In this document: piece by piece, positions 30,431 through 37,343 of the stretch
How the letters are laid out: each line of letters begins with the position of its first letter
How positions within the stretch are numbered: position 1 is the first letter of the stretch
From: Alphaproteobacteria bacterium
GTDB taxonomy: Bacteria > Pseudomonadota > Alphaproteobacteria > RF32 > CAG-239
NCBI GenBank assembly: GCA_045633825.1
Contig: JAZQZB010000013.1
Location: forward strand, 1 to 57,876
DNA length: 57,876 bases
Reading direction: 5' to 3'
Notes under the pieces: model-generated
The model's database searches: none
Seen by the model: the letters and a program-made list of their open reading frames with translations, nothing else
What the model was told of the DNA's origin: nothing
Program-made: the position numbers and the translations under genes

Positions 30431-30436
<6 letters not shown>
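30186..30436 (-). repeat. Duplicated tRNA-Phe 3' end plus terminator (tRNA-linked repeat)
   Basis: AAAAAGCTCCC-N4-GGGAGCTTTGAAATGGTGC at 30186-30219 and 30403-30436 (217-bp period). Confidence 0.85.
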
Positions 30437-30506
<70 letters not shown>

Positions 30507-31724: not shown

Positions 31725-31814
31725 TGGCGGAGAGGGTGAGATTCGAACTCACGGAGGGGTCGCCCCCTCGACGGTTTTCAAGACCGCTGCATTAAACCGC
31801 TCTGCCACCTCTCC
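31725..31814 (-). tRNA. tRNA-Ser (TGA)
   Basis: Reverse complement GGAGAGGTGGCAGAGCGGTTTAATGCAGCGGTCT-TGA-AAACCGTC-long variable arm-GTGAGTTCGAATCTCACCCTCTCCGCCA; 90 nt. Confidence 0.98.
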
Positions 31815-34525: not shown

Positions 34526-34942
34526 ATGATAAAAATAAGCGGGAAAGAAAATTTGGTTGTCGGCGGTATTTTCGGTTGTTTAATCGGAGGATTGTTTATT
34601 GCTTTTGGCGGTATGGGCAATTTTTGGTGTGAGATGTTGTTTTGGTCATTTGTTTTGTATGTGGTTGCAGTTTATTTTGAAATTGTTCCGAATATGATAA
34701 AAAATATGATGAAAAAACATGATTTGTTATCGCAATGCTTGATGTCGTTGGCTTGGGTTCCTACAATCGTCGGCGGAATGATAGTGTTTTTTCTGGGAAG
34801 TTTGTTGTTTGTGGACTATAGCGCTGTTGAATTAAGTAAAATATTAATTTGTTCCAAGACAATATTGTCAGGAATGATGATGTTGTCGTTGAGTGTGGTG
34901 TATTTTAAAAGATTGAATAGTTTCAGGTTGATAAATTTTTAG
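34526..34942 (+). CDS. Hypothetical membrane protein (about 4 TM), predicted SOS-regulated
   Basis: GGGGAG RBS; four hydrophobic segments; lies directly behind the LexA boxes. Confidence 0.7.
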   Translation: MIKISGKENLVVGGIFGCLIGGLFIAFGGMGNFWCEMLFWSFVLYVVAVYFEIVPNMIKNMMKKHDLLSQCLMSLAWVPTIVGGMIVFFLGSLLFVDYSAVELSKILICSKTILSGMMMLSLSVVYFKRLNSFRLINF

Positions 34943-35893: not shown

Positions 35894-35964
35894 AATTTAT
35901 TTTGTAAAAAGTTTAAAATTTAAAATTCCTTCTTATCTTTTAGAGATATGGAGGAGTTTTTTTG

Positions 35965-36462
35965 ATGAAAATATATGTAAATGATAAAATGCAAAAGGGG
36001 TATGTTTATGAAACGACCGAGCCGGAGGGAATAAATTTTGCTAAAGGGTTTGAGCCGGAATTAACACCCAAGCAAATGTTAATGTTGGGAGTTTTTGAAG
36101 GGCATTATCTTAATGATTGTAGAGCAGAGTTTCCTTCAACTTGGTTTGAGGGGGCAAAATTATCGGAAGGTAAGGCGGATGTAACTAAAAATTGTTTTGG
36201 AGTAAAATCCAGACAAGATTTGGATATTTGGCGGAAAAAAGGGTGGATTATTGAGCCTGATGTCCGAGGTTGGTTTCAATGGTATTGCAGATATTATATG
36301 GGACGCAGAATCGAAGGGGTTGATAAAATTCAGATTAAAAGATGGAAGGCTTTTCGACGACACAAGGTTCAACTGGAGCGAAACTGCGCAATGATGGATT
36401 TTGATTGTCGAAAAAAACAGCGTCAAGCCTTACTTCAGTGGGCTTATAATCCGTTTTTTTGA
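35965..36462 (+). CDS. Conserved hypothetical protein
   Basis: GGAGGAG RBS; F.PELTPKQML.LGVFEG.Y, GWFQWYCRYYMGRR, RQALLQWAY motif-like blocks; function unknown. Confidence 0.8.
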   Translation: MKIYVNDKMQKGYVYETTEPEGINFAKGFEPELTPKQMLMLGVFEGHYLNDCRAEFPSTWFEGAKLSEGKADVTKNCFGVKSRQDLDIWRKKGWIIEPDVRGWFQWYCRYYMGRRIEGVDKIQIKRWKAFRRHKVQLERNCAMMDFDCRKKQRQALLQWAYNPFF

Positions 36463-36491
36463 AAATAATGGTTCGAGATAGAATAATTTGT

Positions 36492-36520
36492 TTGACAGTG
36501 AATTTGTTTAGGCATATTCT
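36492..36520 (+). promoter_or_regulatory. Sigma70 promoter for the OMP leader
   Basis: TTGACA-17 bp-TATTCT. Confidence 0.7.
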
Positions 36521-36526
36521 GTATCT

Positions 36527-36731
36527 GCATTGGTTGATTACCAATGTGAGGTTTAGAACCCTCTTTGAACTCGTCTTTAGTGTATAGGACGTTAAATTTT
36601 GCACGCCTCTGGTTATTTATATAAATGACTGGAAGGCGGTAAAATAAACCTTGCGGTCAATATACCGTACTATTTGTTCAATAGGTTCTAACTTCCAGTC
36701 GCCTCTAATCAAGGCGATTTAATTTTTGAAC
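36527..36731 (+). ncRNA. C4/CI-like antisense RNA with a1/b1 and a2 target sites
   Basis: Stem GACTGGAAG (36627)/CTTCCAGTC (36692) encloses two hairpins; GTTCAA and GGTTCTAA are complementary to upstream TTGAAC and TTAGAACC and to downstream TTGAAC. Confidence 0.65.
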
Positions 36732-36752
36732 TAAAAGAAAGGAAGTTAAAAT

Positions 36753-37343
36753 ATGAAAAAAACGTTATTATTGGCAGGTGTTGCCACAGCGTTGTTTGCT
36801 ATAAATGCTAAGGCCGTTGAATTTAAACCTTATATGGGATTGGATTATGTTTATTCAGATGCAGGAATGAAAGATAATGCTGATGTAGTTTATGAAACAA
36901 AATATAATTCATTTAAATTTGACTTAGGTGCTAAATTGAATAAAAATTTTGGTTTAGAAGTTTTTTATCAACAATCAGGCGAAGAAGATAAAAAGCACGC
37001 TACGGCATCCATTTTGGGTGCGAATGCAGAAATATCAACAGAATTTAAGGCATATGGTGTTGATGTAATAGGATATTTGCCATTAACAGATAAATTAGAA
37101 GGTCTAGGTTCTGTCGGTTTTGCAAAATATGATTTTGAGGCTGAATACAATTTAATCGGTGTGGCAAAAGAAAAACAAGATGAAGACAATGTAGGAATTC
37201 GCTTGGGATTAGGTTTGCAATATAATCTTACAGATAATGTTGCTGTAAATGGTATGGCTCGTTATGTTAAAATAGATGATTCTGATAGTGATGTTGTTGA
37301 GGATATAACAGAATTTTCTATCGGGGCTAGATATTCATTCTAA
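36753..37343 (+). CDS. Outer-membrane beta-barrel protein (OmpA-like transmembrane/porin family)
   Basis: Signal peptide ending AKA; alternating amphipathic strands; C-terminal GARYSF beta-signal. Confidence 0.9.
   Translation: MKKTLLLAGVATALFAINAKAVEFKPYMGLDYVYSDAGMKDNADVVYETKYNSFKFDLGAKLNKNFGLEVFYQQSGEEDKKHATASILGANAEISTEFKAYGVDVIGYLPLTDKLEGLGSVGFAKYDFEAEYNLIGVAKEKQDEDNVGIRLGLGLQYNLTDNVAVNGMARYVKIDDSDSDVVEDITEFSIGARYSF

Follow-up and report, generated by a model that had tools for sequence, protein, structure and literature searches.

We analyzed a 57,876-nt stretch of DNA (the window; contig JAZQZB010000013.1 of the Alphaproteobacteria bacterium assembly GCA_045633825.1), and in particular the leader of a gene that encodes a beta-barrel outer-membrane protein (OMP). 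C4-type antisense cassettes are known from phages, integron cassettes, and genomic islands, where they act in immunity and are present as single copies. In their complete layout, two target sites (a1 and b1) precede a structured core that carries the complementary segments (a' and b'), and a second pair of targets (a2 and b2) follows. It is well supported that the promoter and the structured 5' leader RNA of ~225 nt in front of the OMP gene represent a large, multi-copy family, found in gut and rumen Alphaproteobacteria, that is not caught at Rfam's thresholds. It is also well supported that, among the C4 / sRNA-Xcc1 leader cassettes, this family forms a diverged branch, which kept a1-b1 and the core, lost a2-b2, and gained a terminator (T2). 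We think that the leader is probably a two-state attenuator that was derived from a C4-type cassette.

The elements of the leader are listed in Table 1. The original prediction, which was made from the letters of the window alone, proposed a phage-type antisense switch in front of the OMP gene, and every element that it listed is present in the sequence where it was placed. The transcript probably starts near position 36527, and the leader from the promoter to the ATG is about 226 nt. Its minimum free energy (MFE) is −75.1 kcal/mol, versus −45.8 ± 4.3 kcal/mol for 200 shuffles (z = −6.9), and none of the shuffles fold as well. Both this folding check and a check for covariation of the leader's helices, which was seen across 26 and across 135 homologous copies, came out as the original prediction expected. 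Our pattern scan found 3 terminator-like sites, versus 0.7 expected. Among the 62 other copies with enough upstream DNA, 31 have a promoter-like pair that ends 3-10 nt 5' of the first hairpin (H1), while none of the 62 do at a control position. (In the window, another promoter-like pair, TTGAAA-17-AATAAT with a score of 10/12, lies directly 5' of the main promoter at 36459-36487.)

A search with the DNA sequence found a second copy of the leader in the same genome, on contig C48. Of 24 other genomes of the genus, 16 had matches, as compared to none of 16 genomes from other genera. A degenerate pattern for the core, which fixes GGAAGG and YTTCC and which was first checked on known loci, matched at least 120 stretches. 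Nearly all of these come from metagenome-assembled genomes that are labeled "uncultured Alphaproteobacteria" and originate from gut or rumen; a genome often has several copies. We also built a covariance model of the core (R1) from 135 copies of this leader family only. R1 finds 2 copies in this genome, which was the outcome of the genome-wide search that the original prediction had called for. R1 matches 123 of 151 genomes of the order, including all 20 genera sampled. Among 149 other alphaproteobacterial families, it matches 10, and the genomes of these are all 2 Mb or smaller. Two 1.6-Mb genomes of one genus (G121 and G088) have 95 and 61 copies; in the densest genome, this is roughly one leader per 17 kb. 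Two core patterns gave no matches in viral contigs, with the caveat that these patterns are strict and diverged phage copies could escape them. As for unusual copies, L035 has an insertion of ~45 nt in the inner hairpin of stem P2, and in L032, the 3' strand of stem P1 has decayed, so it looks like a dying copy.

Across the 135 copies, 97.9% of the core was paired, versus 32-49% for slid controls, with many compensatory changes in P2 and in the outer portion of P1. Upstream of the core, hairpin H2 was 98.5% paired in 118 copies. H1 had two-sided changes at all 8 of its pairs in 118 copies, and 69.9% of its cells were paired in an unrefined MAFFT alignment of them. The helix of T1, a terminator-like hairpin, also covaries (5 of its 6 pairs changed on both sides). 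The T1 hairpin was found in 119 of 124 copies and has a TTTT run in its tail in just 44 of those 119; a role for T1 as a terminator is uncertain. Within P2, unpaired AAUA is invariant on both sides of the variable inner hairpin in all 135 copies (window 36642-36646 and 36659-36663). A47 and CACUAU are invariant and unpaired as well. The invariant bases of the P2 loop could be a site for a protein, a ligand, or a tertiary contact.

It is extremely improbable that the family is a dispersed repeat at the level of DNA, such as REP, MITE, or NTS-like hairpins, with no function as RNA. Such repeats would also have many dispersed copies per genome, but covarying pairs are up to ~140 nt apart, and promoter, terminator, and ribosome-binding site stand in a fixed order before genes. 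Also, it is only on the coding strand that G-U pairs are frequent (at one P2 pair in 40 of 135 copies, and at one H2 pair in 15 of 26). Positions 36492-36752 do not contain the NTS motif in the form described in the available portion of PMC11893778.

The a' and b' sequences differ from copy to copy, and most copies carry complements of their own upstream. An upstream complement of at least 6 nt was found for a' in 126 of 139 copies (versus 12% of non-cognate pairs) and for b' in 132 of 139 copies (versus 23%). Of the 31 parsed copies in G121, 29 match both of their own sites, and just 1 of 930 non-cognate pairs matches at both. The a1:a' helix was 91.8% paired, and 4 of its pairs changed on both sides.

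These private complements also bear on whether the leader could be a free-standing gene for a trans-acting small RNA (sRNA) of ~190 nt, running from the promoter to T2, with targets elsewhere and the downstream gene incidental. The element does have its own promoter and terminator, Hfq is present, and the available portions of the literature regard sRNA-Xcc1 as a trans-acting sRNA (bioRxiv 10.1101/2020.03.17.996009, bioRxiv 10.1101/2025.06.18.660453, PMC2996969, PMC12189769). Nevertheless, we consider this quite unlikely. The variable single-stranded segments are complemented within their own leader, and non-cognate matching at both sites is rare in G121, as given above. Furthermore, the copies have a fixed orientation and a short gap to the next gene (a median of 47 nt from the end of P1 to the gene start), and the ribosome site is specific to the cassette.

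The leader can form two folds. In fold 1, H2 and the core stems P1, P2, and P3 form. In fold 2, the pairings are a1 with a', b1 with b', and a spacer segment with the 5' strand of P1 (the Alt helix), and the full T2 hairpin forms. These folds are mutually exclusive, and both of them covary, far above slid controls: fold 1 had 93.8% of cells paired (36-48% for slid controls) with 21 two-sided pair changes, and fold 2 had 88.3% of cells paired (33-44% for slid controls) with 26 two-sided pair changes. The spacer, the 5' strand of P1, and the 3' strand of P1 vary together across copies. The Alt helix was 94-98% paired, and its duplex had −16.5 kcal/mol for cognate versus −12.5 kcal/mol for non-cognate segments, with the cognate better in 85% of 18204 comparisons. 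The Alt helix reaches only the first bases of P2; a complement in the spacer to a 6-mer of P2 was found in only 7 of 139 copies. In the nearest-neighbor model, fold 2 was the MFE structure in 124 of 124 copies, with a mean gap of 12.3 kcal/mol. Without H1, H2, and b1, the gap drops to 3.5 kcal/mol, and P1 appears in the MFE structure of 24 of 124 copies.

The loops of the first and the last hairpin may also form a kissing interaction. The H1 loop UGAUU (36535-36539) is complementary to the AAUCA part of the T2 loop (36705-36711), and in other copies, the H1 loops UGAUGA or UGAUAA face the T2 loops UCAUCA or UUAUCA. A complement of at least 4 nt was found in 59 of 123 copies, versus 12.6% for shuffled loops, where the loops themselves are nearly constant. 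Most copies of the OMP-type subgroup carry a mismatch in this complement.

Of 124 copies, 113 have the T2 hairpin followed by a run of at least 4 T, and in 112, the T2 stem begins 3-4 nt inside the 3' strand of P1. With the shared bases blocked, the hairpin is less stable, at a median of −3.9 instead of −9.7 kcal/mol. The cassette genes also have a distinctive ribosome site: 51 of 108 have GGAAG no more than 22 nt from the start, as compared to 13 of 832 (1.6%) long open reading frames (ORFs) of this genome, and in G121 it was found in 24 of 29. Where a' meets P1, the invariant ACUUCC is a complement to this GGAAG.

We infer that fold 2 is the OFF state and that fold 1 is the ON state. In fold 2, which is the ground state according to the energy model, the full T2 would stop transcription before the gene. 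In fold 1, the core and H2 would form, P1 would take 3-4 nt away from T2, and the polymerase would read through; also, P1 would hold the anti-Shine-Dalgarno stretch CUUCC, which would leave the GGAAG ribosome site free. The a1-b1 pairing would be the lock, with a sequence that is private to each locus. By analogy to IsrK and to CI of phage P4, the likely key would be RNA from the same locus, either a short a1-b1 transcript or a released core, that removes the cis partner by pairing in trans.

A leader with two folds is described for IsrK / STnc1160 (from Salmonella Gifsy-1), which is flipped by RNA from its own locus. In the portion of PMC4825925 that is available, the inactive fold of the IsrK leader has its middle (a1-b1) part paired in cis with a sequence ~130 nt downstream, while in the active fold, which is induced by short IsrK in trans, the middle part forms its own hairpin. 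This two-fold model is backed by compensatory mutations, and the discussion of the same source states that in phage P4, pairing of CI RNA with the upstream seqA causes termination (PMC4825925). Also, Rfam's isrK model overlaps the a1b1 module of phage P1. However, IsrK and seqA-CI-seqC of P4 are circuits for prophage immunity or induction, with one per element, while the leader family is multi-copy and precedes host envelope genes, and a short, T1-terminated RNA like IsrK is doubtful in this family. Another likeness, by description, is to the Brt RNAs of Bartonella, which are also alphaproteobacterial, multi-copy, structured, and ~200 nt, with a terminator directly upstream of the gene (PMC5387305). 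According to the available part of that paper, the Brt RNAs were proposed to act as both attenuators and sRNAs. Unlike our family, they were found only before helix-turn-helix (HTH) regulators, at nine per genome, and were reported to be specific to Bartonella (PMC5387305).

Alternatively, the trigger of the same switch might be an RNA-binding protein or a small molecule that binds the internal loop of P2 and the fold-1 junction, with a1-b1 pairing as merely a part of the expression platform. The invariant unpaired bases around the variable hairpin of P2 (AAUA on both sides, along with A47 and CACUAU) would fit with this, and T2 overlaps P1 as in riboswitch platforms. The genes served include pili, OMPs, and glycosyltransferases, which are often under second-messenger control, and the genome encodes GGDEF proteins and Hfq. 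(CsrA was considered as a reader of the GGA motifs and rejected: CsrA was not found in the genome.) On the other hand, the junction pocket would be lined by the P3 loop and the 7-nt joiner, both of which vary freely, and no ligand is indicated. The relatives C4, IsrK, and P4 CI act by RNA-RNA pairing, according to the available text of PMC4825925. Overall, we consider a riboswitch-like or protein-dependent leader to be unlikely.

The closest link to known RNAs is through sRNA-Xcc1 (RF02221), which in Rfam is outside of the C4 clan. We examined 12 true sRNA-Xcc1 loci (L235-L246) from other Pseudomonadota. In 12 of 12, a1 and b1 are present ~85-100 nt upstream, with a1 in the loop of a GRGG-N8-CCYC hairpin, and in 9 of 12, a2 and b2 are present directly before the next start codon, at the ribosome site. 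In other words, sRNA-Xcc1 loci have the complete C4 layout (a1-b1, core, a2-b2), and our leader family is a diverged relative without a2 and b2. We found no literature that calls sRNA-Xcc1 a C4-type cassette, among sources available in part and with Chen et al. 2011 outside that scope. The available portions of these sources do report an 88-nt sRNA-Xcc1 RNA on a Northern blot (PMC2996969), and they place sRNA-Xcc1 upstream of symE in integron cassettes (bioRxiv 10.1101/2025.06.18.660453), beside IsrK in APSE phages (bioRxiv 10.1101/2020.03.17.996009), and next to C4 and isrK in genomic islands of Xylella (PMC12189769).

The models of sRNA-Xcc1 and of the leader family detect each other's RNAs, below Rfam's cut-off. 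R1 found 12 of 12 true sRNA-Xcc1 cores at their exact places, at 11-37 bits (best E = 3e-7), and 12 of its 13 matches at E ≤ 1 in 34 kb were these RNAs. A model of the upstream module (R2) found 4 modules of true sRNA-Xcc1 loci at the right place. Conversely, RF02221 gave 6 full-length core matches on 20 sister loci of the leader, at 24.5-40 bits (below the cut-off of 53), and another 37 full-length, sub-threshold matches in 4 of 5 genomes, with none over the cut-off. (Across the phylum, RF02221's cut-off was exceeded in 24 of 151 genomes.) The two RNAs share a 9-bp closing stem, a P2 with an internal loop and a small hairpin, a P3 hairpin, a 6-7-nt joiner, and an NCC-plus-U tail. Both upstream modules have a GRGG-N8-CCUC hairpin that presents a1, followed by b1, and each RNA is directly upstream of a gene on the same strand. 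The leader family differs in being AT-rich, in preceding chromosomal surface genes, and in having up to 95 copies per genome. Also, by eye, the true sRNA-Xcc1 loci mostly have no T-run terminator after the core, in contrast to T2 in the leader family.

Is the leader similar to C4 itself? The relevant Rfam clan (CL00128) includes C4 (RF01695) and c4-a1b1 (RF03163), with gathering thresholds of 45 and 46.7 bits; the positive control, phage P1, scored 68.8 and 51 bits. On the leader, no Rfam family was found at its gathering threshold, and neither C4 nor c4-a1b1 was found at this threshold in the window. (The matches to the leader at E ≤ 10, including snoR22, nqrA-II, and SQ2397, were at 14-20 bits, and we rejected them as noise.) C4, c4-a1b1, and isrK had no match at E ≤ 10 on the leader or in the whole genome, and the C4-clan models had none at E ≤ 10 among the 20 sister loci. 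The covariance-model check that the original prediction proposed, with C4 and c4-a1b1, was thus negative at gathering and at E ≤ 10. There was no significant match between C4 or c4-a1b1 and the leader family in either direction. The layout itself is similar, however. Both the phage P1 cassette and the leader in the window have a promoter, a 7-8-bp hairpin, a 4-bp hairpin whose 8-nt loop holds a1, then b1, a terminator-like hairpin, a three-way junction whose P3 loop carries b' and whose 7-nt joiner carries a', and an NCC tail. (In the nomenclature of phage P1, TTAGAACC is a1 and TTGAAC is b1.) So, the proposed C4-type layout stands for the order and shape of a1-b1 and of the three-way-junction core with b' and a', and not for a2-b2 or for a C4 score.

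The original prediction also viewed the second TTGAAC, just before the ribosome site, as part of a downstream a2-b2 target, and this was not borne out. Downstream complements of at least 6 nt were at background, both for a' (22 of 139 copies versus 11% of non-cognate pairs) and for b' (39 of 139 versus 21%). Furthermore, the two homologous leaders that are closest (L009 and L010) lack the second TTGAAC, which is probably a chance element. Unlike C4 of phages P1 and P7, the leader family lacks a2 and b2, and no icd/ant or other phage genes are near the copy in the window. These results bear on whether the leader works like a classical C4, in which a processed antisense RNA of 75-85 nt from 36627-36700 would pair with a2 and b2 at the OMP ribosome site and block translation. 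C4 RNA is processed by RNase P. Several features would fit: the layout matches phage P1; TTGAAC does recur, and GGAAGTTA (36741-48) is complementary to 36688-95; and the true sRNA-Xcc1 relatives carry a2 and b2 at the ribosome site. The 88-nt RNA on the Northern blot in the available part of PMC2996969 fits as well. Yet, besides the background levels of downstream complements and the absence of this TTGAAC from the closest relatives, 113 of 124 copies have T2 after the core and before the gene, and the one complement that is conserved, ACUUCC, is inside P1 of the folded core. We consider a classical C4 mechanism to be very unlikely. Similarly, the suggestion that the leader responds to C4 RNA from a prophage is unlikely, with no C4 at E ≤ 10 in the genome and with target sequences that are specific to each locus.

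Several points weigh against a diverged C4 cassette that works as an attenuator. First, with a gap of 12 kcal/mol, fold 1 would have to be favored by processing, by a factor, or by kinetics. Second, TTTT in only 44 of 119 T1 tails weakens the idea of a short, IsrK-like RNA. Third, the GGAAG site is present in only about half of the copies, and in RNAfold's fold 2, CUUC is bound by the H2 strand GRGG, which may keep it from ever masking the ribosome site. Fourth, the inner 5 bp of P1 are invariant partly by selection, as our search pattern fixed GGAAGG and YTTCC. The remaining points concern kinship. The copy in the window has no match to sRNA-Xcc1, C4, or c4-a1b1 even at E ≤ 10 (region scanned, 36300-36900). 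The match of R1 to the c4 of phage P1 was not significant (9.4 bits, E = 4.4, rank 12 of 19), and R1 and R2 failed to find the a1b1 module of phage P1. Finally, Rfam's C4-clan models have no match at E ≤ 1 to the true sRNA-Xcc1 loci, so the tie to C4 proper rests on shared architecture and not on scores.

To see which genes the leaders serve, we sorted the 139 downstream ORFs by heuristic rules: 30 are type IV pilin-like, 25 have a lipobox, 6 are small secreted proteins, 30 are otherwise signal- or membrane-like, 40 are unclear, and for 8 copies no ORF was found. Pfam identified Bundlin, GT1, GT2, and DXD glycosyltransferases and an XRE HTH protein among the downstream genes, as well as a PEGA domain near the threshold; a few copies precede XRE HTH genes. 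In G121, 28 of the 31 parsed copies precede type IV pilin-like paralogs, each with its own a1/b1 pair (the counts by gene class are partial, as 31 of the 55 loci taken were parsed). The original prediction suggested that the cassette might be shared among OMP paralogs. The cassette is indeed common to many genes for surface proteins, but these are not OMPs alone.

If each surface gene has a private "address" (its a1-b1 and a'-b' sequences), then up to ~95 pilin or envelope genes in a 1.6-Mb genome might have independent ON and OFF states. This would be a kind of phase or antigenic variation that is based on RNA, without DNA inversion or slippage, and its origin would be an immunity cassette that was domesticated from phage. 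A locus would release RNA that unlocks no locus but itself, which would be positive feedback, and through the constant ACUUCC and GGAAG elements, other loci could be damped by the active one. This larger scenario is speculative, and we would not bet on it.

In the window, the genomic context of the leader is chromosomal. Nearby genes include recA, a BrkB-family gene, a FabI-like enoyl-ACP reductase, VIT1, and NUDIX and kinase genes. Among the 9 neighboring ORFs tested, we found no phage structural, immunity, or regulatory families, which agrees with the original prediction's statement that there are no phage genes nearby. The two ORFs upstream of the leader, at 35962-36462 (+, 166 amino acids) and 34526-34942 (+, 138 amino acids), have no match in Pfam or PHROG. 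Farther downstream, an ORF of 485 amino acids at 40736-42193 (+) strongly matches PHROG 29364 (function unknown, E = 1.6e-96), with no other phage neighbors. The window also has two tRNA genes on the − strand, at 30434-30506 and at 31728-31814; the second has a long variable arm.

Table 1. Elements of the leader and of the OMP gene in the window.
Element	Sequence or form	Position	Strand	Basis or remark
Promoter	−35 TTGACA, 17-nt spacer, −10 TATTCT	36492-97 (−35); 36515-20 (−10)	+	Sequence; pattern scan 10/12
H1	5' hairpin, 8 bp, 5-nt loop UGAUU	36527-34 / 36540-47	+	Sequence
H2	4-bp hairpin, GAGG (36548-51) / CCTC (36560-63), 8-nt loop	36548-36563	+	Presents target a1
Target a1	TTAGAACC	36553-60	+	In H2 loop; exact 8-nt complement of a'
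Target b1	TTTGAAC	36564-36570 (TTGAAC 36565-70)	+	Complementary to P3 loop b'; 6 nt exact
T1	Terminator-like hairpin CGTCTT/AGGACG (36572-91), then TTAAATTTT	36572-36600	+	Pattern scan
Spacer segment	Forms Alt helix with 36627-37	36605-36614	+	Complementary to 5' strands of P1 and P2
Core	Three-way junction, C4 / sRNA-Xcc1-like	36627-36700	+	R1, 85.8 bits
P1	GACTGGAAG / CTTCCAGTC	36627-35 / 36692-700	+	Closes the core
P2	GCGGTA / TACCGT, with conserved internal loop and variable inner hairpin	36636-41 / 36663-68	+	
P3	Hairpin, CTATT / AATAG	36670-74 / 36680-84	+	
b'	GTTCAA	36676-81	+	P3 loop
a'	GGTTCTAA	36684-91	+	7-nt joiner; antisense to a1
T2	Intrinsic terminator, 7-bp stem, loop CUAAUCA, T-rich tail	36698-36727	+	Pattern scan; stem includes last 3 nt of P1 3' strand
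Second TTGAAC	TTGAAC	36726-31	+	Sequence
Ribosome-binding site	GGAAGTTA	36741-48	+	Complementary to TAACTTCC (36688-95: end of a' and P1 3' strand)
OMP gene	196 amino acids, ATG at 36753	36753-37343	+	Pfam OMP_b-brl, E = 9.3e-20, 71.9 bits

In this family, a C4 architecture without downstream targets, and with a terminator, has multiplied to tens of copies per genome as a standard leader for surface genes. If our interpretation is correct, it would add a large family of structured RNAs that standard annotation has missed, and it would link sRNA-Xcc1 to the C4 layout. It would also provide a concrete model for how gut symbionts with small genomes control or vary their surfaces.

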